From the sequence record NC_135728.1: a DNA stretch of 64,000 nt; one strand, written 5' to 3'. The notes under the pieces are model-generated. The model ran no database searches. It saw only the letters and a program-made list of their open reading frames with translations, and had not been told where the DNA came from. Shown here in pieces: positions 20,804 through 45,800 of the stretch (positions are counted from its first letter, which is position 1; every line of letters starts with the position of its first letter). The position numbers and the translations under genes were made by a program. The stretch is from a phage.

Positions 20804-21198
20804 AGATTGAGATCACTAAAGAAGGTAAGAAAGTGTCTGGCGATTATGCAACAGTAATTCGGGATGTAATGTTCGAAGTAACCCAGACTGGTACGTCTAA
20901 GGTTGGTCAAACGGTAAGTGTGCAAGGTAATATTGCCGCAGGTGAAAAGATAATCATCGTGATCAAAGGACAAGACCCTGTGGAAGGAACAGTGGGCCGA
21001 GGAGGCTACCTGTGTATTTCTGAAGAACCTCGTATGCTGGTTGCTGATAACTCCACAGGTAAAAAGCGGGTATGTAACACGGACGAGGTGATGATTATCT
21101 ATCCAGTCAACCCAGATGATCCGGCAACATGGATTGTGGGAAATGAAATCTTCTCTTTAGAAGAGTTATCCTTCCCAGCTCCGCGCTCTGTTCAGTAA
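20800..21198 (+). CDS. hypothetical protein (start of small-gene array)
   Basis: 132-aa ORF with ggag RBS, MKIEIT N-terminus. Confidence 0.45.
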   Translation: MKIEITKEGKKVSGDYATVIRDVMFEVTQTGTSKVGQTVSVQGNIAAGEKIIIVIKGQDPVEGTVGRGGYLCISEEPRMLVADNSTGKKRVCNTDEVMIIYPVNPDDPATWIVGNEIFSLEELSFPAPRSVQ

Positions 21199-21237
21199 TA
21201 ATTTATCTTACCAGGGACGGTAGAAGTAGGAGGTAGC

Positions 21238-21471
21238 ATGAAAGTTAAATTTCTTACAGATTTAGGGTACCCTTCCTTGGTTGACTGTGTTGGTAAAATT
21301 GTGGAAGCAAAACGGCTATCTGCAAACGAGAATGTTGTCATGGTTAAGGGAAAAGATTTATTAGCTGCAGGTGCAGAGTCTGGCAGGGTCTCTCCTGACT
21401 ATACGTATTACCTGTCTTTAAGTAATCTACCAGAACGAGGCGGCAAAGGCCTTGAAGTTGTGGAGGAGTGA
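21238..21471 (+). CDS. small acidic protein, paralog family A
   Basis: MKVKFL N-terminus, GK...VKGKDLLAAGA core, LEVVEE C-terminus; paralogous to 24892 and 25109. Confidence 0.5.
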   Translation: MKVKFLTDLGYPSLVDCVGKIVEAKRLSANENVVMVKGKDLLAAGAESGRVSPDYTYYLSLSNLPERGGKGLEVVEE

Positions 21472-25375: not shown

Positions 25376-25774
25376 GTGAAAAATAAACTGTTTAAAGTTA
25401 CAATGAAAATTCGCGGAGCTTGGAGCGTAAAGCAAGGGCGTATTCCGGAATTTGAGAAAGACTTCTACGTAGTCTCCACCTCGGAGGAGGCTGCATGCTG
25501 GCAGGCTGGCTATGCCTATGCAAGAACCTGGTACGAAGGATACCAGACCGGGGGATATGACGGAGAAATTATCAGCAGAGGTGTGGAAGAAATTAATGTG
25601 TTGACAAGTGAAAAAGTTTTTGTTATAGTGCATCCAGATTCCAGAGTGAAGCATTACTGGAACGCCAGAACAAAAACTTGGACACCGTTTGCAGATTCTG
25701 CTACGCCACTTTTAAACCAGAAAGCTCTTGACTCTGCCCCAAGTTATGGGATTGTTGAAGAAAAGCTAAACTGA
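25376..25774 (+). CDS. hypothetical protein, paralog family B
   Basis: C-terminal HPDS...YW...WTP motif shared with 27581..27976. Confidence 0.45.
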   Translation: MKNKLFKVTMKIRGAWSVKQGRIPEFEKDFYVVSTSEEAACWQAGYAYARTWYEGYQTGGYDGEIISRGVEEINVLTSEKVFVIVHPDSRVKHYWNARTKTWTPFADSATPLLNQKALDSAPSYGIVEEKLN

Positions 25775-28052: not shown

Positions 28053-28313
28053 TTGATGAAGATTAAATTGAAAAACCTTGAAACGGCAGAGATTCAGGAC
28101 GGTGTAGATTTCCGTTCTAAAGATGGTGACATCTTAGAGGTAAATCTTCCAACCTACGAGCTGATTAAAGGTTTTGGCAACGTTCAGGAAGAGGATATTC
28201 CAGAAATTCTTATGATGTTGATTCTTGACGGAACTGTGTTTGTAGGTGAAGGTGAGAACGCTATTGCAATCCCAGGCCATTTTTATGAAGTAGTTGACGA
28301 AGAGGTGCTGTAA
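28053..28313 (+). CDS. small acidic protein (family with MKIKL N-terminus)
   Basis: 86 aa, aggag RBS, C-terminal EVVDEEVL. Confidence 0.45.
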   Translation: MMKIKLKNLETAEIQDGVDFRSKDGDILEVNLPTYELIKGFGNVQEEDIPEILMMLILDGTVFVGEGENAIAIPGHFYEVVDEEVL

Positions 28314-36996: not shown

Positions 36997-37098
36997 CCCG
37001 ATACCGTTGGAAGACAAGATCATATTAGACATGGTTGCAATCAGGCCAATACCCAGGGCAATAATCAAGATCACTGCATCGATTAATTTCTGTTTCAT
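36997..37098 (-). CDS. small hydrophobic peptide (about 33 aa)
   Basis: Below ORF-track cutoff; translation MKQKLIDAVILIIALGIGLIATMSNMILSSNGIG; coordinates approximate. Confidence 0.3.
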
Positions 37099-37175
37099 GG
37101 TGTTTATTCTCTTCTGTTAGTAACCTTATTCATGGGGCCGCTACCACAGCCCCAGGGTAAGGCGGCTATGTGCTT

Positions 37176-37421
37176 TTAGTGTTTCATTCCAACCATCGCG
37201 GCACGGATCGCCGTAGTGCTGTACTTGAAGCCGTCCGGGGTCTTATCTTGTCCGGTTAGCTCCAGAAAAAGCATCATATCCCGCGCCGCATCATTACGAT
37301 TAGCATTAGCGTTAATAAAGCCTTGGGCCAACCGGTACAATGACTCATCGTTATTAATCCAAAGGCTTACATTCCAATGAGTTTTGTTTTTGTAACCGTT
37401 ATAACCTTTATTGCTTTTCAT
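37176..37421 (-). CDS. hypothetical protein
   Basis: 81-aa ORF with agaggtaaaca RBS. Confidence 0.45.
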   Translation of the reverse strand: MKSNKGYNGYKNKTHWNVSLWINNDESLYRLAQGFINANANRNDAARDMMLFLELTGQDKTPDGFKYSTTAIRAAMVGMKH

Positions 37422-37513
37422 GGTGTTTACCTCTTCTTTGTTCCGGGGTGGCGGATCATTCTACCACCTTATGTATTATGCTTTGTTAGATGGTTGTTTG
37501 TTGTCAAACTATT

Positions 37514-37693
37514 TTAACGATAATCATCGTACGCTTTATTAACCTGGCGAATATAACATTCAAAAGCTAGATCAATAGATTCATATTCACGGATATACTC
37601 ACCATAGGAAACCACATACATTTCTATAGCTTCCTCATATGCGAGGAGAATAGAATCTAAGCCTACGATCTCGGTCTTTGCAATAATAGCCAT
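37514..37693 (-). CDS. hypothetical protein (59 aa)
   Basis: Just below ORF-track cutoff; ATG after agagga RBS; translation begins MAIIAKTEIVGLDSILLAYEE; coordinates approximate. Confidence 0.4.
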   Translation of the reverse strand: MAIIAKTEIVGLDSILLAYEEAIEMYVVSYGEYIREYESIDLAFECYIRQVNKAYDDYR

Positions 37694-37768
37694 GATTTTT
37701 ATCCTCTTTGTGGTTGGTGGGGCTTGTTGCTCCCTTTGATTTATATATTACAGTTTTATATGGTCATG

Positions 37769-38002
37769 TCAACTATTTTCAAAAAATTTTTCTGCTGTGA
37801 TATTCTTCCCGGTAGGGTTCGCTACTTTCAAAATTCTATCATGCACCGGACGCCCGAAAGAATAAGATCCGTATACAGTAAACCAATAATCACCGTCAGG
37901 CTGTACTATTACCGCCGCATATGGTACGCCTTTTTCGTTTTTGCTGACAAAATAGATCACATTGCCATTAATAGCCTCAGCGCGTTTAATTTGTTCCATC
38001 AT
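37769..38002 (-). CDS. hypothetical protein
   Basis: 77-aa ORF with agagg RBS. Confidence 0.45.
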   Translation of the reverse strand: MMEQIKRAEAINGNVIYFVSKNEKGVPYAAVIVQPDGDYWFTVYGSYSFGRPVHDRILKVANPTGKNITAEKFFENS

Positions 38003-38341: not shown

Positions 38342-38543
38342 GATTTTAACTCCTATCTATCTGGTCAATGATTGGGGGCCTCCCCCCTCGACAACTCTTA
38401 TTATCCATATTGTCGGGAATGATGCAAGTACTTCTTTAAAAATTTTTTAAGCGCCTTAGGGCCGTTGTAACGTCAAAACAATAAAGGCTATGCGATTGCA
38501 TAGCCTGCTAGTGTTTAGGTCGCTGTAGGCCCTGCCTGGGGCC

Positions 38544-38894
38544 TTATTTTGCATTCTTGCCTGTATTGCCGCCACGGTACCAGCGTTTGCGGTGAAAATG
38601 GTAATAATCCCCCTCGGCATTAAACATCAGATGATTTTCAATAACCAGCTTACGAAGGTGGGCCGGATCTTGTTCCATTCTTGCCAGATTCCGGCGGCTG
38701 TTACGTAAACGGATAAATTCCATATTCAGGCCGTTGATTGCAGCATGGATGTTAAAGTAACCACCTTTGAGACGTTCACGCATGGCGTTAAGCTCAACAC
38801 AATATACAGATTTCTCACAAATCAAGGTATTAGCTAGGGCGCGGACCTGGGCAAGGGGGTTAAGCTCATTAAGGTAATATAATTTAACTTTCAT
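38544..38894 (-). CDS. hypothetical protein
   Basis: 116-aa ORF. Confidence 0.45.
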   Translation of the reverse strand: MKVKLYYLNELNPLAQVRALANTLICEKSVYCVELNAMRERLKGGYFNIHAAINGLNMEFIRLRNSRRNLARMEQDPAHLRKLVIENHLMFNAEGDYYHFHRKRWYRGGNTGKNAK

Positions 38895-38911
38895 AAAATC
38901 ACCTGTTGAAA

Positions 38912-39220
38912 TTAGTTTGAGAAAACATCGTTCACAATAGCGATCACAATGCCGCTCACCTTGTCACGGTCAACAATGCACAAATCACCATAGATCATGT
39001 GGTAGTCTGGATGATCTTTCACAGAATAGTCAATAAGTGTTTTCTTGTCATCCAGCTTCGTAACTTCCATTCTCATAACGATATGAGAATCATCAAAGGC
39101 ATTATTCCGAAAAGTCATAGCCTGACCGCCAGGGCACCCAGTGATCTCCACTTCCACACCATCTACGATCTGACCATCAAAGAAATAAAGATTATTAGCC
39201 TGGATAAACATGTCTATCAC
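38912..39220 (-). CDS. hypothetical protein
   Basis: 102-aa ORF downstream of copy 1 of the repeated promoter element. Confidence 0.45.
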   Translation of the reverse strand: MIDMFIQANNLYFFDGQIVDGVEVEITGCPGGQAMTFRNNAFDDSHIVMRMEVTKLDDKKTLIDYSVKDHPDYHMIYGDLCIVDRDKVSGIVIAIVNDVFSN

Positions 39221-39257
39221 TCCTTGTTAACTGCGTGGTATTTTAACAGGGTTTAAA

Positions 39258-39303
39258 TTTACTTTATTGATGGCCCTGGAGTCAAGGCCATCTAAAAATA
39301 AAT
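39258..39303 (-). promoter_or_regulatory. repeated palindromic promoter element, copy 1
   Basis: Minus strand AGATGGCCTTGACTCCAGGGCCATCAATAAAGTAAAT: TTGACT-N18-TAAATT with GATGGCC...GGCCATC palindrome. Confidence 0.45.
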
Positions 39304-39304
39304 T

Positions 39305-39505
39305 TTACAGGCCTACAATCTCTTTGATTCGTTTAACCGCTGCCTCAGCGCCTTGGGGGTAAAAATTATGGTAACCAATCACGCGAGTGATACTAATCGC
39401 CGTTTGATGATCTTCATAGTCGCCCTTGAAGATTTCTTGACCGTCAATCAGCACGGCAATTTTTTCTTCTTTTTTGAAGTTAATAACGCGGATATTGTTG
39501 CTCAT
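39305..39505 (-). CDS. hypothetical protein
   Basis: 66-aa ORF with aggaga RBS. Confidence 0.45.
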   Translation of the reverse strand: MSNNIRVINFKKEEKIAVLIDGQEIFKGDYEDHQTAISITRVIGYHNFYPQGAEAAVKRIKEIVGL

Positions 39506-39654
39506 TTTGTTTCTCCTTTCTGGTTTTTGTGGTGGTGGGGATTAGCTCCCCCCGTTGATTGTTATTATCCACATTCCGGACCGGATTGCAACACCCCGGA
39601 AGAAAATTTTTTTTTTTTTTTAAAGATAGGCCCCCATGATCGGGGGCCGTTATC

Positions 39655-39771
39655 AGTTACTTACAGCGATAAAATACATCCCTACGCCTAACAATATTTC
39701 AAGGGCGATGATCTCAAGCCATACCATAGCACGGCGCGCCTTATCGGTGCGGGGCTTATCCTTGGTTGTCA
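39655..39771 (-). CDS. small hydrophobic peptide (about 38 aa)
   Basis: Below ORF-track cutoff; strong RBS ggagggaagggggag; translation MTTKDKPRTDKARRAMVWLEIIALEILLGVGMYFIAVSN; coordinates approximate. Confidence 0.3.
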
Positions 39772-39792
39772 TCGTCTCCCCCTTCCCTCCTG

Positions 39793-40014
39793 TTAGCAGT
39801 TACGTGGTTTGCAATGGCCCCCAGGAGTATTATCACCACGCACATTGCAAGAAAAATTATCTCTGTCGTTGTTCGATCCATTGTTATAAAATTCCTCAAG
39901 ATCAGGCCTGAAAATAAAGCGTTCGTTATTGAATCCGTCACGCCAGGCGGCTGGCTTCAAATCTTCACTAAAGGGATTAATTAACGTGGCATTATTTAAA
40001 CGGTTGGCCCACAT
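39793..40014 (-). CDS. hypothetical protein
   Basis: ORF track 39793..40032; ATG at 40014 after gagaggaa RBS is the likelier start. Confidence 0.4.
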   Translation of the reverse strand: MWANRLNNATLINPFSEDLKPAAWRDGFNNERFIFRPDLEEFYNNGSNNDRDNFSCNVRGDNTPGGHCKPRNC

Positions 40015-40396
40015 ATTTTCTATTCCTCTCAAATAGGCGATCCGCCTCAGTTAAACATATCTCATGGGCTTGATCTCTGGTTTTAGCCTCATCAAAAACC
40101 TGTTGTGCCAGGCTGCAGCGTAGGGAGACTGGAAGATCGCTATAATAGGCGTTGACAAACGTTTGAGCGTCGTACAGGTCTGAAAATACTTTACCCTTTC
40201 TATTATTCCCCTTGTCAACAATTGCAAGGATAACCAATACAATAGTTGCGACTACCCCCAGGAAAATAGATATAATAAACCATAAAAAGGCGGATCTTCC
40301 CATCTTGCCAGCGATCCAGGCGTTAAACAAGGCAACCAATACAGCCAAAATAATAAATTCCATTCTATGTACCTCTTTTACAGTTCTGATTAACAA
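39992..40396 (-). CDS. membrane protein
   Basis: 134 aa with two TM-like segments (FIILAVLVALFNAWIAG, FLWFIISIFLGVVATIVLVILAIV). Confidence 0.5.
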   Translation of the reverse strand: MLIRTVKEVHRMEFIILAVLVALFNAWIAGKMGRSAFLWFIISIFLGVVATIVLVILAIVDKGNNRKGKVFSDLYDAQTFVNAYYSDLPVSLRCSLAQQVFDEAKTRDQAHEICLTEADRLFERNRKYVGQPFK

Positions 40397-40427
40397 TAAG
40401 GCGGCAAATATGCCGCCTGTTACCTGA

Positions 40428-40808
40428 TTAAAAATTATCGCCGTAAATCTTTCCGCTTTCTACCCATACCACCACGCGAGGCATACTATCCCACACGTCT
40501 TGTTTTAGATTGAGCGCGTGCAATTCTTCGGTGGTGCTCATACCGGGCACGGGCTGATTGTATACTGCAAAACGACCGCCTGCATAATCATAGGCCAGGG
40601 TTAAATCACACTGGATCATCTTTTTGATCATGGCATTAAGCATGGCGTTAGCCGCATATTGATCACGTTTTAAAGGCAACTCTTTGATTAGTTTGCGATA
40701 GTTTTCGATATGGTCGCACACTGTTTCACGTGGAAGATCTTTCATATCCTCGCGAAAGGTAACCAGGTTAAACATAACGGTGTCAATGGCTTTAGTGGTG
40801 CTTTTCAT
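40428..40808 (-). CDS. hypothetical protein
   Basis: 126-aa ORF with agagga RBS. Confidence 0.5.
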   Translation of the reverse strand: MKSTTKAIDTVMFNLVTFREDMKDLPRETVCDHIENYRKLIKELPLKRDQYAANAMLNAMIKKMIQCDLTLAYDYAGGRFAVYNQPVPGMSTTEELHALNLKQDVWDSMPRVVVWVESGKIYGDNF

Positions 40809-40896
40809 GATGTTTTCCTCTTTGTTTTGTGTGGGGCAAACGTCTTGCCCCTTGAGTTTTAATATAGCAGGTTTTTAGGTTATTGCAACACTTTAT

Positions 40897-41520
40897 TTAT
40901 GAAAAAGTCATCTCGCCATATTCATCCACATCAAACCGCCAATCATTGGCCTCGATAAGGCCGATCAGGTTTTCGGTAGTAAATTGTTCAAGATAAGCTT
41001 GCTCCAGGTCTACGTAAACCTTGCGGGATAGCTCCCGTACCGTCTCGGTGATCAGCTCTTCCAGCTCTTCAACTTTGTCCTCTTGCTTGGTGGTCAGGTC
41101 TAGCCAATTAGTATCGATGCACCCTCCTATTGTGTTTTCGTGGTGATAATGGCTAAACGGGATACGTTCAACACTGGCTGATAGTTCGCCATCGTGCATT
41201 GTGCCGAACAAGTGACGAATTGATCGGAACTTGGTCAGGGCCTTTACTTTACGCAAGAATTTTTCTAAATCCACGTTTTCCGCACTGATTGACGCGCCGT
41301 CACCCTGGCACCAAAAGCCTGACCAATGTACTTCGGTATCTTCAAGGCCATACTCTGGAAAAACATATTCTTTATAGTATTCAATTACACTTTCTGCAAA
41401 AAAGTTATCCCCGCTGTGTTCTTCTCTTTCGCGTACCATTTCAATGGCTTTTTCTTTTTGTTCGTCGGTCAGCACGTCGAAAGATAAATTGTAACCTGTG
41501 GTAATGTTAACGGTGGTCAT
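40897..41520 (-). CDS. hypothetical acidic protein
   Basis: 207-aa ORF with aggag RBS, downstream of promoter and UTR hairpin. Confidence 0.5.
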   Translation of the reverse strand: MTTVNITTGYNLSFDVLTDEQKEKAIEMVREREEHSGDNFFAESVIEYYKEYVFPEYGLEDTEVHWSGFWCQGDGASISAENVDLEKFLRKVKALTKFRSIRHLFGTMHDGELSASVERIPFSHYHHENTIGGCIDTNWLDLTTKQEDKVEELEELITETVRELSRKVYVDLEQAYLEQFTTENLIGLIEANDWRFDVDEYGEMTFS

Positions 41521-41578
41521 GATATTTTCTCCTGTTTTCTTTGTTAGTGGCGGGAAGTTTTCCCGCCTATGTTTTTTA

Positions 41579-41606
41579 ATTATACTTATTGAGATTTACT
41601 TGTCAA
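41579..41606 (-). promoter_or_regulatory. sigma70-like promoter TTGACA-N16-TATAAT
   Basis: Minus-strand consensus hexamers; transcript leader contains GGCGGGAAAACTTCCCGCC hairpin (plus coords about 41548-41566). Confidence 0.55.
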
Positions 41607-41856
41607 CACTATTTTTTAAATTATTGTGGCGCAAAATGTTTAAAATCTTCTCAACGTCATCAACACGGCGGCAATTTTTAAACGCTACCAATTGCCCCAT
41701 GATTTTAATCACTGGGCGGCCTTGCCAGTGCCCCTGAAGAAAGCGCGCCTTGACTTTATCGGTGGAACTATCACGCCACCAAATAGCCTTGTTGTTGCAG
41801 TAGTAAAAATTATTCAGGATAACATCAACTTTATCAAAATTTTTTAATTTACGCAT
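41596..41856 (-). CDS. hypothetical protein
   Basis: 86-aa ORF. Confidence 0.45.
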   Translation of the reverse strand: MRKLKNFDKVDVILNNFYYCNNKAIWWRDSSTDKVKARFLQGHWQGRPVIKIMGQLVAFKNCRRVDDVEKILNILRHNNLKNSVDK

Positions 41857-41894
41857 GGCGTTTACTCCTTTCTCTCTTTGATGTGGTTAGTATA

Positions 41895-41925
41895 GCTAAC
41901 CTGTTGACGATGTCAATGATATTTT
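41895..41925 (-). promoter_or_regulatory. sigma70-like promoter TTGACA-N16-TATACT
   Basis: Minus-strand hexamers read directly upstream of 41596..41856. Confidence 0.45.
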
Positions 41926-42035
41926 TAACGCCACAAAACGGCCCTGGGCGATGTTTTCAGGTTAAAGGGGGCGATTGCATAGGTGGGGGGCCTTTTTGGC
42001 ACTTATAGGGCCAACCAGGGGCGCTATTCGTAGGG

Positions 42036-42068
42036 TAGAAATAAAAAGCCCCGCACGATGGCGGGGCG
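42036..42068 (-). terminator. rho-independent terminator (minus strand)
   Basis: Minus-strand GCCCCGCC-ATCGT-GCGGGGC hairpin then TTTTTATTTCT after stop of 42076..42297. Confidence 0.6.
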
Positions 42069-42075
42069 TTGGTTG

Positions 42076-42297
42076 TTAGTTGCCTTTGTGGCGGTATCGT
42101 TCCGCCTGCCGTTCACGTTCCAAAAGGAGGCCCGGCAATTTACGATCATAATGATTTCGCCAGATCTTCCCAAATCTTTTTGGCTTATTCAGTTTATTGT
42201 TACGCTGGCGGCGTTCCGGCAGCTCTTCGGAATCATGAGATCGCTTTACAATTTTCTCAAAATTAATCTTCATATATTCCCCCCTTGCTAACTTCAA
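42076..42297 (-). CDS. hypothetical basic protein
   Basis: 73-aa ORF. Confidence 0.4.
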   Translation of the reverse strand: MKLARGEYMKINFEKIVKRSHDSEELPERRQRNNKLNKPKRFGKIWRNHYDRKLPGLLLERERQAERYRHKGN

Positions 42298-42616
42298 TAT
42301 TGGCCTGAATAGCCCGGATACGGCGCTTTATAACTTCCTGATCTGTGTGATCGTATCCCCAAAAGTCCACAATTTTTGCGCCCCCTGCCTCCAAGCGGTA
42401 TAGTGTTTCCTGCATCTTGTAAGCCGGGATCGGTCGCGGTGTTACTTGGTCACCTTCTTTATTTTTATACTTTATAATATAATCTTCGTTATCGTTGAAT
42501 GTCCAAAATGGATATTCTGCAAGGGCGGTACTTCCTCTTTCCTTTTTATCCTGGATCTTGTTTACAATTAAAGCCGTAGCAATAGCGCCAATAATAAAAC
42601 TAGCCCCGCTGATCAT
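42263..42616 (-). CDS. membrane-anchored protein
   Basis: 117 aa with N-terminal TM (ISGASFIIGAIATALIV). Confidence 0.45.
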   Translation of the reverse strand: MISGASFIIGAIATALIVNKIQDKKERGSTALAEYPFWTFNDNEDYIIKYKNKEGDQVTPRPIPAYKMQETLYRLEAGGAKIVDFWGYDHTDQEVIKRRIRAIQANIEVSKGGIYED

Positions 42617-42690
42617 GTACTTTCTCCTTTCAAGGTGTTAATAAATTATCTTTATAGATGGCCCTGCAGCCAGGACCACCGAAAAAATAA

Positions 42691-42936
42691 CTATTTCACA
42701 ATGCCTACAAAACAGATCCCGCCTTCACCTATATAAGCAATATCGGTCACTTTGTAGTTGGTCAAGATCTGTTTATTTAGATCATTAATAAAATCGGTCA
42801 TTGCGTTGGTGTAGTTGTCTTCCGTATCTAAGGCATAATCCCAGGTGTAAACCTTTTTACGTCCGAAGCCTTTTACCATGATACGGGCGCTTTTGGTGTT
42901 GGTAGGGGCATAATATTTGGTGATTAGTGCTGCCAT
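42691..42936 (-). CDS. hypothetical protein
   Basis: 81-aa ORF downstream of copy 2 of the repeated promoter element. Confidence 0.45.
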   Translation of the reverse strand: MAALITKYYAPTNTKSARIMVKGFGRKKVYTWDYALDTEDNYTNAMTDFINDLNKQILTNYKVTDIAYIGEGGICFVGIVK

Positions 42937-42979
42937 GGTTTTAACTCCTATGCATTAGTTCAGTGTTAACAGTATAAAG

Positions 42980-43026
42980 TTTACTTTATTGATGGCCCTG
43001 GTGTCAAGGCCATCTAAAAATAAACT
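42980..43026 (-). promoter_or_regulatory. repeated palindromic promoter element, copy 2
   Basis: Minus strand AGATGGCCTTGACACCAGGGCCATCAATAAAGTAAACT: TTGACA-N18-TAAACT; identical to copy 3. Confidence 0.45.
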
Positions 43027-43367
43027 TACTCGTTTTCTTCCAGCTCCGCAAGCTCTTCTTTTGCTTCTTCCAACTCTGTCTGCAATTCCTGATATTCTTC
43101 ATCGTCCTCAATATCCAGGCTGTCGATGTAGTCGCTAAATCCGCAGCGGTAAGCGATAGGATCTAGCTCCTTGAGGATACGCGACGGAAGAAAAGAAATG
43201 TTTCCGATCATAATTTCGCCGTAGATCTCGTCCAACCATTCATCATAGTTTTCGTCGTACTTGTCCTCGTCGATTTCAAAGTTATCGATCTTATTCTCAA
43301 GGTCTGCGATCTGTTTTTTCAGGGCAGCGATCTGAATAGCTTTTTCTGCGGCGGTCATAGTAGTCAT
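43026..43367 (-). CDS. hypothetical acidic coiled-coil protein
   Basis: 113-aa ORF with aggaga RBS, downstream of promoter and UTR hairpin. Confidence 0.5.
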   Translation of the reverse strand: MTTMTAAEKAIQIAALKKQIADLENKIDNFEIDEDKYDENYDEWLDEIYGEIMIGNISFLPSRILKELDPIAYRCGFSDYIDSLDIEDDEEYQELQTELEEAKEELAELEENE

Positions 43368-43418
43368 GGTGTTTTTCTCCTTTTGTGTGTTCTGGGAAGT
43401 TTTCCCGTTTATGTGTTT

Positions 43419-43446
43419 AGTATACTGATCTAAGTTAGCTTGTCAA
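43419..43446 (-). promoter_or_regulatory. sigma70-like promoter TTGACA-N16-TATACT
   Basis: Minus-strand hexamers; leader contains CGGGAAAACTTCCCAG hairpin. Confidence 0.5.
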
Positions 43447-43566
43447 TTAAAAGTTTAAGAAAAATTTTGCGACACTGTTGGCGCTACCCATCAACATTTG
43501 CGCCAGGATGTAACCAATGATGCAAACGATAATAGTTACCTTTGTGTGCTGGCGTGTAGTACTCAT
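43447..43566 (-). CDS. small hydrophobic peptide (about 39 aa)
   Basis: Below ORF-track cutoff; RBS aaggggg; translation MSTTRQHTKVTIIVCIIGYILAQMLMGSANSVAKFFLNF; coordinates approximate. Confidence 0.3.
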   Translation of the reverse strand: MSTTRQHTKVTIIVCIIGYILAQMLMGSANSVAKFFLNF

Positions 43567-43600
43567 CTTCAAGCCCCCTTTTTAGCTTAACTGGGATTAG

Positions 43601-43647
43601 TTTACTTTATTGATGGCCCTGGTGTCAAGGCCATCTAAAAATAAACT
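43601..43647 (-). promoter_or_regulatory. repeated palindromic promoter element, copy 3
   Basis: Same 47-bp sequence as copy 2. Confidence 0.45.
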
Positions 43648-44042
43648 TAGTAAGTTTTCAGTACTTTCCCGTCCAGTCTGTCAAGCTGGATCTCGATAGC
43701 TGCAGAAAACCTATTATAAACCACATCGCCCATGGAGTCCAGCCAATCTATGACGTTATACACCTGCTCTTTATTCTTGCAAGTCCGGATCCGTTTCATT
43801 ACGTAAGACGGATCAATATTAGTGCTCTCGTTGTTGTGGTCATGCGCCTGGCCTGCTGCATTAGTTATAGATTTTACAACCACCTGAAAGGGCTTTAAGG
43901 TGCCTTTTGCGTTCATCTCACGCGCTTTTGCGGCGCGGTTGTTATATGTTACACAACGGCGGCAAATGTTGACCAAATGCATATCAATAATTTTTTCATC
44001 GTTTGCCAGTTCGTTCATGATGCGGCGTACGTTCTTATTCAT
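43647..44042 (-). CDS. hypothetical protein
   Basis: 131-aa ORF with aggaaa RBS. Confidence 0.5.
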   Translation of the reverse strand: MNKNVRRIMNELANDEKIIDMHLVNICRRCVTYNNRAAKAREMNAKGTLKPFQVVVKSITNAAGQAHDHNNESTNIDPSYVMKRIRTCKNKEQVYNVIDWLDSMGDVVYNRFSAAIEIQLDRLDGKVLKTY

Positions 44043-44090
44043 GATCTTTTTCCTTTGTGTTGGCGGGAAACATTCCCGCCTTTTGTGCCT

Positions 44091-44118
44091 AGTTTACTTG
44101 AATTTTGCAGCGTGTCAA
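44091..44118 (-). promoter_or_regulatory. sigma70-like promoter TTGACA-N16-TAAACT
   Basis: Minus-strand hexamers; leader contains GGCGGGAATGTTTCCCGCC hairpin (about 44062-44080). Confidence 0.5.
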
Positions 44119-44124
44119 TGATTT

Positions 44125-44523
44125 TTATTCGTGGGCGCATGTTACAATGTGCTTTTTATAGCCTAGATGATCAGCAAGTGCCGACAAAAACTCTTCTTCA
44201 TAGATCCAGCCGTTGGCAGTGATCCCCATAGCATTTAATGCGCTCTCAAGTGCTGCGTTAGCTTTATCATAACCGTATCCGCTGGCCTTGCCGCCAGTAT
44301 AACCGTACTTATTGTTCTTGCTGTCGTGCATCCAAAAGACGCAATAATGAGTATTACCGCTGGAGGCGGCATAATACCGGATCTCAGCTACTTCGTGCAA
44401 ATTATTGTCATCGTCCAGGCCCACCAGATTATAAGCCTTATAAAATCCACGATCACGGCGGCAGTTCTTGACATCAGAAAAAGAAAAGTCCGCATTATCA
44501 AAATTAAAGGTGGTGGTTTTCAT
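44125..44523 (-). CDS. hypothetical protein
   Basis: 132-aa ORF with agagga RBS. Confidence 0.5.
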   Translation of the reverse strand: MKTTTFNFDNADFSFSDVKNCRRDRGFYKAYNLVGLDDDNNLHEVAEIRYYAASSGNTHYCVFWMHDSKNNKYGYTGGKASGYGYDKANAALESALNAMGITANGWIYEEEFLSALADHLGYKKHIVTCAHE

Positions 44524-44885: not shown

Positions 44886-45014
44886 TTTTGGGTAGAATTC
44901 TCCAGCCGCCACCCCTGCCAGGTTTGCAAGCTTTCACTCTCCCACCTGGTCAGTTAGGTCCTGCTAGGGCTGGCCCCGCCAGGTTGCAGCAGTTGACGCA
45001 CTATGTTAGAAAAA

Positions 45015-45145
45015 TTTTTTGAAAAGTGTTGACAACGGCCCCACCAGGTGGCACAATATACATATCGAAAGGACGGCAGGCACCGGTGACGGGGGAGACA
45101 ACCACCGGGGATGGGCGCTGCATAAAATGAGAACGGTTATCATTA
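45015..45145 (+). ncRNA. candidate small RNA 1 (promoter plus structured region)
   Basis: AT-rich UP-like tract then TTGACA-N17-CACAAT; downstream GC-rich palindromic segment CACCGGTGACGGGGGAGACAACCACCGGGG and 3' motif GAGAACGGTTATCATT; no ORF. Confidence 0.3.
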
Positions 45146-45285: not shown

Positions 45286-45394
45286 TTCTAAATGAGAACT
45301 CCTCGCATTTAATAAATTTAATTAGCATGCTAATTACCATCCGTAACAATTTCCTATAAAACAGTATCCACTAAAATATTCCCATATAGAAATT

Positions 45395-45800
45395 TTAAAA
45401 ATCCATTTCTGAAAACGAAAAATCGATTTCGTCCCCAAAAATTTCAGGTCGAGAGCCGGAACGATTTCCAGAAAATCCGATTCAGAAAACGAAAAACAGA
45501 TCGAGTACTGAGAAATTTATCGAGAAAAATTTTCAGAAAATTCAATCTTTGAAATGAAAAACAGATCGAGTACCTGGAAAGCTGCACCGCAACTTCAAGA
45601 TAGTGGTTAGATTGTTACCATAGAAGGTCAAGGGTAAGTGGAGGGAGTTATAGTAGAAGGATGTGAGTATGTGCAGGAAATCTGTAATGGTGGTCTGGAA
45701 TATGGTGCAAACGATAGGATGGGTGATTCAGCTTGTCGCGCCCACTCTGAAAAAATCCATTTTAGTTTTCGATCCATTTTCTGATTTTCTAAGGATTTTA
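45395..45800. repeat. degenerate TTC(A/T)GAAAA repeat array
   Basis: At least 7 copies of TTCAGAAAA/TTCTGAAAA/TCCAGAAAA plus longer repeats GAAAACGAAAAA(T/C)(C/A)GAT and AAATCCATTTTAG x2. Confidence 0.5.

Follow-up and report, generated by a model that had tools for sequence, protein, structure and literature searches.

A stem-loop with embedded promoter-like sequence recurs after stop codons in the early region of a Vequintavirus and coincides with crossover junctions

The closest described counterparts of the element reported here come from T4-like phages. In RB49/phi1, PST and nt-1, promoter-early stem-loops (PeSLs) combine an intergenic sigma-70-like promoter with a stem-loop; they mediate deletions, insertions and replacements via recombination, and their stem-loops lowered reporter expression as much as rrnB T1 (PMC2839356, PMC4122927). 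The RNase III signals of T7, such as R1.1, offer a comparison at the RNA level: in these, an internal loop can confine cutting to a single strand, so that the 3′ end keeps a protective hairpin (PMC1540722). We analysed a 64,000-nucleotide (nt) stretch of phage DNA (NC_135728.1; hereafter the window, to which all coordinates refer), whose source phage is a Vequintavirus, i.e. an rV5-like Escherichia coli myophage with Murica as its nearest relative. The window carries four copies of a 51-nt element, all on the minus strand. The conserved core of this element is a sense-strand RNA hairpin, which overlaps promoter-like sequence in three copies, and its copies coincide with the crossover junctions at which a cassette has been lost or exchanged. 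By analogy, the element is PeSL-like in kind, PeSLs being its closest known analogue.

Copies 2 and 3 (42978-43028 and 43599-43649; hairpins at 42978-43026 and 43599-43647) show zero differences over 51 nt, whereas copy 1 (39256-39306; hairpin 39256-39304) is 92% and copy 4 (42644-42694; hairpin 42644-42692) 71% identical. A sequence-only reading of the same DNA had described the first three as near-identical, with copies 2 and 3 the same, and both a repeat comparison and a core-pattern scan confirmed this: with up to three mismatches, the 40-nt pattern matched copies 1, 2 and 3 only, and it had 0 matches in 100 dinucleotide-preserving shuffles. The repeat comparison also brought up the diverged copy 4, overlooked before. 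A search for the element elsewhere in the window, which that reading had called for, gave no fifth: a covariance model built from the four copies found exactly these four, in one orientation, with 79-90 bits on the minus strand versus 30-45 bits on the plus strand (copy 3, 90.2 versus 42 bits). Weak matches of the model at 25605-25690, 28098-28157 and 21190-21263 (E 0.14-10) were dismissed, the first of them being a promoter region with an unrelated palindrome.

The placement of each copy between a stop codon and the next gene likewise held, for all four. The stop codon of the upstream minus-strand open reading frame (ORF) forms the start of the copy, or the copy begins 1-2 nt inside it, so that this triplet is the first of the hairpin 5′ arm or overlaps it. 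Copy 1 follows the stop (39305-39307) of a 66-amino-acid (aa) ORF and copy 2 that of a 113-aa ORF (43026-43028), the TAA of a 131-aa ORF (43647-43649) is the 5′ base of copy 3, and the TAG of an 81-aa ORF (42691-42693) lies within the 5′ arm of copy 4. The next start codon follows 20-45 nt after the copy end.

The sense (minus-strand) RNA folds into a 10-bp A/U-rich lower stem, a 2 × 3 internal loop, a 10-bp G/C-rich upper stem and a tetraloop. In copy 2, the lower stem pairs 43017-43026 with 42978-42987, the internal loop comprises 43015-43016 and 42988-42990, the upper stem pairs 43005-43014 with 42991-43000, and the tetraloop ACAC occupies 43001-43004; copy 1 has the loop ACUC. The internal loop reads UA/AAU in copies 1-3 and UC/UAU in copy 4. 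Sense-strand folding energies of the four copies range from -23.6 to -26.6 kcal/mol (z-scores -4.5 to -7.1), with copy 2 at -26.6 kcal/mol and z -7.1. The palindrome GATGGCC/GGCCATC seen earlier is present but too narrowly drawn, since an imperfect inverted repeat fills the whole 49 nt. The promoter-like hexamers are part of this helix. Of the '-35', TTG forms the top of the upper stem and ACA falls in the loop; the lower-stem 3′ arm ends with TAAACT, and the 5′ arm is made up of the AT-rich sequence that precedes the -35. The -35-like and -10-like hexamers lie at 43002-43007 and 42978-42983 in copy 2; in copy 3, TTGACA (43623-43628) extends across upper stem and loop, and TAAACT (43599-43604) occupies the 3′ arm of the lower stem.

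The divergence of copy 4 bears directly on what is conserved. Compared with copy 2, eight out of eight substitutions at paired positions retain sense-strand pairing, by G-U pairs and two swapped pairs (A-U to U-A, U-A to A-U, G-C to G-U, A-U to G-U, C-G to U-G and U-G to C-G); as a rough inference, such retention would be improbable, on the order of 10^-3, if about one random change in three were tolerated. The rV5 version of copy 4 carries an additional swap, U-A to C-G. The G-U pairs exist on the sense strand only, their antisense equivalents being A-C mismatches, and copy 4 folds at -24.1 kcal/mol (z -5.2) in the sense orientation but at -8.5 kcal/mol (z -0.8), i.e. at shuffle level, in the antisense orientation.

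The same strand bias was seen when hits from the window and from 16 related genomes or contigs were folded (54 in all, with 40 distinct sequences). Mean energies were -23.1 (sense) versus -15.8 kcal/mol (antisense) for copies 1-3, and -22.6 versus -8.0 kcal/mol for copy 4. In a 42-hit alignment, 98.9% of cells were paired and four pairs showed changes on both sides, whereas partners slid by 1-3 columns paired in 35-55%. Loop variants are often common to the copies of one genome, e.g. copies 2 and 3 both have ACAC in the window and in phage Alma, the two Murica copies share ACTC, and rV5 copies 1 and 2 share ACTT, which hints at gene conversion between copies. An Rfam scan of 36-47 kb with E up to 1 gave no match at the elements. 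Elsewhere in that interval, a sub-threshold Clostridium-PBP match at 40806-40875 on the minus strand (34 bits versus a gathering score of 94.4, E 0.18), which overlaps a hairpin at 40833-40851, is almost certainly due to chance.

At the DNA level, the arrangement TTGACA-18-TAAACT that had been read on the minus strand stands for copies 2 and 3 but not for copy 1, which has TTGACT-18-TAAATT. The match to sigma-70 hexamers is 10/12 in copies 2 and 3 and 9/12 in copy 1, with AT-rich sequence upstream and a suboptimal spacer of 18 nt; copy 4 lacks a -35 (CTGGCT) and reaches 8/12 at best. In the majority of related genomes the -35 is TTGACT instead of TTGACA, and one divergent relative has TTGATA with a 20-nt spacer, the hairpin being retained. 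The clear early promoters of the region match at 10-12/12 with spacers of 16-17 nt. The rV5 paper lists 33 promoters and 20 terminators, none of them at the four orthologous positions; its predicted promoter P194 has the -10 hexamer TAAACT.

In phi92 and UAB_1, the slot upstream of gp235 holds a plain TTGCAA-16-TAAACT promoter followed by a 5′ leader hairpin, and the element and this slot are collinear over the part running from ATTTATTT to AATAAAGTAAACT. We considered it as a hidden member of the element family and rejected it, since it has no fold (z about 0) and is a plain promoter. The element shares with this slot and with rV5 promoters P192, P194 and P185 the TTGAC -35 core, the -10 context AAGTAAACT and the AT-rich upstream part. 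It differs in that these early promoters have 16-17-nt spacers, 10-12/12 matches, no fold across the promoter, and a hairpin downstream of the start site. The element has the look of an early-promoter scaffold with a strong helix built on, and weak to moderate promoter activity of copies 1-3 is plausible. Of the co-regulated promoter class proposed earlier, the sigma-70-like hexamers in three copies and the -10 part AATAAAGTAAACT, collinear with a phi92-like promoter, remain; against a strong promoter class stand copy 4 without its -35, the prevalence of TTGACT, the 20-nt spacer and the rV5 list.

The second line of evidence concerns recombination. The interval between copies 3 and 2 (43029-43598, minus strand) is a variable cassette. 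It contains a 39-aa hydrophobic ORF (43447-43566; good ribosome-binding site GGGGG, ATG at 43566), a strong promoter TTGACA-16-TATACT (43419-43446), a 5′ leader hairpin (43393-43407) and the 113-aa ORFan (43026-43367), all on the minus strand. The 39-aa ORF is annotated in rV5 (gp188) and FV3 and belongs to PHROG family phrog_16391, but is unannotated in Murica. One 621-bp repeat period, from the start of copy 3 to the start of copy 2, is missing as a unit from ime, ECP26 and the IMG/VR contig L021; flank identity is 97% in ime and 90-95% in ECP26. All three carry a single hybrid element with the left flank of copy 3 and the right flank of copy 2, and their alignments to the window end at 43599, restart at 43026-43037 and overlap on that single element. 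The cassette interior occurs in 114 phage records versus 120-123 records carrying the element or region.

The cassette has also moved between phage groups. Justusliebigvirus KKE7M holds window positions 43447-42974 at 93.5% identity in place of phi92 gp234; this block comprises promoter, 5′ hairpin, 113-aa ORF and element, and KKE7M is its sole carrier among several hundred matching non-Vequintavirus records (mostly Stephanstirmvirinae: Justusliebigvirus, Phapecoctavirus). Its left crossover lies inside a common promoter spacer, and its right crossover falls in 12-13 nt, AATAAAGTAAA, common to the element (its -10 part) and a phi92 promoter. That crossover junctions fall in the copies follows from the near-identity of the copies and from the -10 part which they have in common with ordinary early promoters. 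The alternative offered by the sequence-only reading, a small duplicated cassette, was thereby borne out twice: the 621 bp between copies 3 and 2 are missing precisely in three genomes, and promoter, ORF and element were taken up as a block by another phage subfamily. The hairpin is not tied to the 113-aa gene, because loci with distant homologues of this protein lack the element, and no significant hairpin follows the gene in the five that were folded (L006, L009-L012).

Other indels of the region also begin at promoter -35 sequences or at repeated Shine-Dalgarno (SD)/start motifs. Gene content varies at 38554-38910, 37115-37407, 37049-37767 and about 44924. Among these sites, the region of a 116-aa ORF is absent from rV5 and FV3, and that of an 81-aa ORF from rV5 and ECP26, the latter with a ~32-nt junction overlap that is a repeated SD/start-codon motif. 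FV3 has a 717-nt block replaced, starting from the -35 of the promoter at 37772, and several relatives have insertions of 130-180 nt near 44924.

A BLAST search of the element against 50,697 phage records returned Vequintavirus and KKE7M only, and all four sites are found at the same positions across about 120 Vequintavirus records. Scans for the element gave 0 matches in 5,426 E. coli genomes and 0 matches in 185,579 species-representative genomes. A pattern scan of IMG/VR returned 18 stretches, of which three, from two Vequintavirus contigs, were real; a metagenome scan returned seven stretches on Vequintavirus-type contigs, and those checked with the covariance model carry the element. Over 38500-44500, the window is 98.5% identical to Murica and 90-97% identical to > 100 further Vequintavirus records. 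Over this interval, E. coli Vequintaviruses are matched at 95-98% identity by 17 records that bear the name 'Campylobacter phage' (host C. jejuni, some UNVERIFIED), and phi92-like phages are likewise matched by some records of that name; the host labels look doubtful.

How far does the likeness to PeSLs extend? Both are intergenic composites of promoter-like sequence and a stem-loop; in PeSLs the stem-loop may share sequence with the -35 or -10 box, and its stems include G-T pairs. Both have an upstream stop in an AT-rich part, an SD sequence plus ATG at the 3′ end, and a place in an ORFan-rich early region; in both, a close relative has just one element where another phage has an ORFan flanked by repeats, and unrelated ORFs are swapped at the motifs. 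In the present case we found a stable stem-loop enclosing the -35 (upper stem/loop) and the -10 (lower stem), a span from stop codon to SD/ATG, and indel and replacement junctions in the motif. In contrast to PeSLs, which number dozens, there are four copies in one 4.4-kb cluster, and a long two-part helix of 20 bp around the whole promoter replaces the short polyG/polyC stem. The promoter match is weaker here (9-10/12, 18-nt spacer) and missing in one copy; for PeSLs, promoter and terminator activity and the formation of mini-circles have been demonstrated. There is also no detectable sequence similarity to PeSLs in the phage-record BLAST search; because its hits were restricted to Vequintavirus and KKE7M, we regard the element as an analogue of PeSLs, not a homologue.

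With T7 signals of the R1.1 type the element shares an intercistronic position in polycistronic early transcripts made by host RNA polymerase (here in predicted operons), a length of about two helical turns, and an internal loop between stems of ~10 bp, here 10 + 10 bp. The pairs adjoining the loop-closing pair, U-A and U-G, are similar to those of a distal box. General background on the RNase III signals of T7 early mRNAs comes from the work of Dunn and Studier. The differences are a smaller internal loop (2 × 3), a G-C-rich stretch at the presumed proximal box, and the lack of sequence similarity and of an Rfam match. By this comparison, the hairpin could plausibly work at the RNA level as an RNase III site of the T7 type. 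A more remote analogy is to the attC sites of integrons, imperfect palindromes with strand-biased pairing at the 3′ end of mobile ORF cassettes. The element likewise is an imperfect palindrome with strand-biased pairing at the 3′ end of a mobile ORF; unlike attC cassettes, those described here have their own promoter, and their junctions are explained by homologous or microhomology crossover. Neither an integrase nor core-site logic was seen, though no search was aimed at them.

We propose, with a probability of roughly 0.55, that the element is a composite module: a sense-strand hairpin that would serve as an intercistronic 3′-end or processing signal, an overlapping moderate promoter, and copies that act as crossover points. 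The hairpin, as part of polycistronic early transcripts, is most likely such a 3′-end or processing signal. If an RNase III-type enzyme cut within the internal loop, a protective hairpin would remain at the 3′ end of the upstream cistron; without cleavage, the hairpin could simply block 3′ exonucleases or be an attenuator. The DNA of three copies would provide a moderate sigma-70 promoter, TTGAC(A/T)-18-TAAA(C/T)T, whose AT-rich upstream part and -10 form the lower stem, and which may restart transcription for the downstream gene. Crossovers in the copies delete, insert or exchange promoter-ORF-hairpin cassettes within and between phage lineages. In a bolder version, which we put forward tentatively, each unit would be used twice, as a site for host RNase III or another endonuclease in RNA and as a working promoter in DNA, and would be a portable, self-contained expression unit of promoter, ORF and hairpin that moves from Vequintavirinae to Stephanstirmvirinae through crossover in the promoter parts held in common. 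PeSL-like systems would then have evolved twice independently, with different mechanisms at the RNA level.

Several points weigh against the composite module. The relatives are mostly > 90% identical, so that the covariation amounts to few independent events, and the alignment used was itself fitted to the covariance model. In copies 1-3 the promoter hexamers overlap the stems, which makes conservation of the one inseparable from that of the other. Repeat-based recombination requires no selected function. G-C pairs occupy the presumed positions 1-2 of the proximal box, in a register that depends on the cleavage site, and a G-C pair at proximal-box position 2 inhibits RNase III binding in a model substrate (PMC1540722). 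Finally, the literature searched held no usable Vequintavirus transcript maps and no observed 5′ or 3′ ends, cleavage or promoter activity.

The sequence-only reading had suggested that these promoters are regulated together, with the -35 embedded in a palindrome that serves as operator for a dimeric regulator; such a regulator could come from phage or host. TTGACA-18-TAAACT in copies 2 and 3, the position of GATGGCC/GGCCATC on either side of the -35, three sites that would make a small regulon, and a -10 part common with real-looking promoters are all in its favour. However, the left half-site of copy 4 has become GGTGGTC by two transitions while the right one, GGCCATC, is unchanged, so that DNA symmetry is lost and RNA pairing is kept by G-U; the lower-stem swaps (A-U to U-A, U-A to A-U, U-A to C-G) save complementarity, not sequence; pairing is strand-specific; copy 4 has no -35 and one relative a 20-nt spacer; and an inverted repeat of 49 nt goes far beyond the needs of an operator. 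Since folding is intact in copy 4 through G-U and compensatory changes despite the lost -35, we take the palindrome to be an RNA structure, acting as a strand-specific helix, and consider an operator for a dimeric protein very unlikely. An RNA operator, bound by a phage translational repressor or antiterminator on early mRNAs, would agree with a conserved sense-specific hairpin and with the invariant internal loop and upper-stem sequence of copies 1-3. Yet the hairpin sits 20-45 nt upstream of the next ribosome-binding site without sequestering it, loop and internal-loop sequences differ in copy 4, and no candidate protein is found among the neighbours (ORFans with no significant Pfam match and one sub-threshold GvpG hit), which makes this the least probable of the alternatives.

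That the hairpin is an intrinsic (Rho-independent) terminator or an attenuator for the upstream gene is unlikely, even though the Murica annotation (KT001917) has copies 1 and 4 as 45-nt terminators, a stable hairpin stands directly after the stop codon with UUUA past the full hairpin in copies 1, 2 and 4, and PeSL stem-loops cut reporter expression like rrnB T1. The G/C-rich stem is followed by AAUAAAGUAAAC, with no U tract; on either strand U-rich sequence comes before the stem, and a U-rich tail is missing from copy 3 (CUAAUCCC). Our scan found canonical terminators at 42048-42067, 38485-38506, 39629-39648 and 40399-40418 but none of the four elements, the sites are missing from the ARNold/MFOLD terminator list of the rV5 paper, and termination would silence downstream genes without a strong promoter of their own, e.g. 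after copy 4. A purely DNA-based element, i.e. a selfish or neutral palindromic repeat or a single-stranded DNA hairpin used for recombination (cf. miniature inverted-repeat transposable elements, repetitive extragenic palindromes and attC) with no role in RNA, would account for the indel and exchange junctions inside the element and for its attC-like place, at the 3′ end of a mobile ORF, of an imperfect palindrome that pairs better on one strand. Against this, the four copies have one orientation and the same orthologous sites in about 120 genomes and so are not actively spreading; orientation always equals that of transcription, and position always abuts a stop codon; the phi92-type junction is accounted for by the 12-13 nt of shared promoter sequence and needs no site-specific recombinase; and the scans of E. 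coli and species-representative genomes were empty. We hold this explanation to be quite improbable.

rV5-like phages are in wide use for typing and therapy, and their early-gene regulation is unmapped; the element marks probable points of cleavage, stabilisation or restart in early polycistronic mRNAs. It also provides, outside T4-like phages, a sequence-level case in which small regulatory repeats are the places where phages lose and gain ORFan cassettes and pass them on to other subfamilies. For annotation it carries a warning, in that its sites are neither plain promoters nor plain terminators, and the combination of hairpin and promoter is a compact part that is a candidate insulator for synthetic operons.

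The genes surrounding the copies are small ORFs, all on the minus strand, and the region is an early, ORFan-rich genome arm. Proteins next to the element belong to PHROG families of unknown function; the GvpG hit noted above was the one Pfam match of any kind, and none was significant. The stop of the 131-aa ORFan (43647-44042) opens copy 3; upstream of this ORFan lie the promoter TTGACA-16-TAAACT (44091-44118) and a 5′ hairpin (44062-44080). The 81-aa ORFan (42691-42936) has copy 2 upstream and copy 4 downstream, and the 117-aa ORFan (42263-42616) lies downstream of copy 4. The predicted unit with the latter ends at a canonical intrinsic terminator (42048-42067; GCCCCGC...GCGGGGC, then TTTTTATTT). 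Copy 1 is flanked by the 66-aa ORF upstream (39305-39505) and an ORF of 99-102 aa downstream (38912-39220). All these features are on the minus strand and, by consensus scans, the four copies sit inside predicted transcription units with a strong promoter at the start and a canonical terminator at the end.

Some further features of the region are worth recording. Strong early promoters (TTGACA-16-TATAAT/TATACT/TAAACT) lie on the minus strand within 41549-41606, 43393-43446 and 44062-44118. About 11 nt past each of them is a G/C hairpin (GGCGGGAA..TTCCCGCC or CGGGAAAACTTCCCA), i.e. a 5′ leader stem-loop that starts near +5; read on the plus strand, these leader hairpins with T-rich sequence resemble terminators. 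The same promoter and leader-hairpin design is used by phi92-like phages. At 45385-45580, an ORF-poor stretch beside the plus-strand promoter at 45029 contains three degenerate direct repeats of ~57 nt (63-75% identical, spacing 65-74 nt) and may be the 'non-coding' region of the rV5 genome map; Tandem repeat finder reported only a trivial 12-nt repeat in 45.0-46.1 kb. Lastly, a 27-nt sequence with a TTGACA -35 and A/T-rich upstream sequence (AGAAAAATTTTTTGAAAA.TGTTGACA) is found at 37767-37793 (minus strand) and 45008-45034 (plus strand). The two occurrences, 7.2 kb apart, in opposite orientation and 93% complementary, appear to be members of one promoter family directed away from each other.

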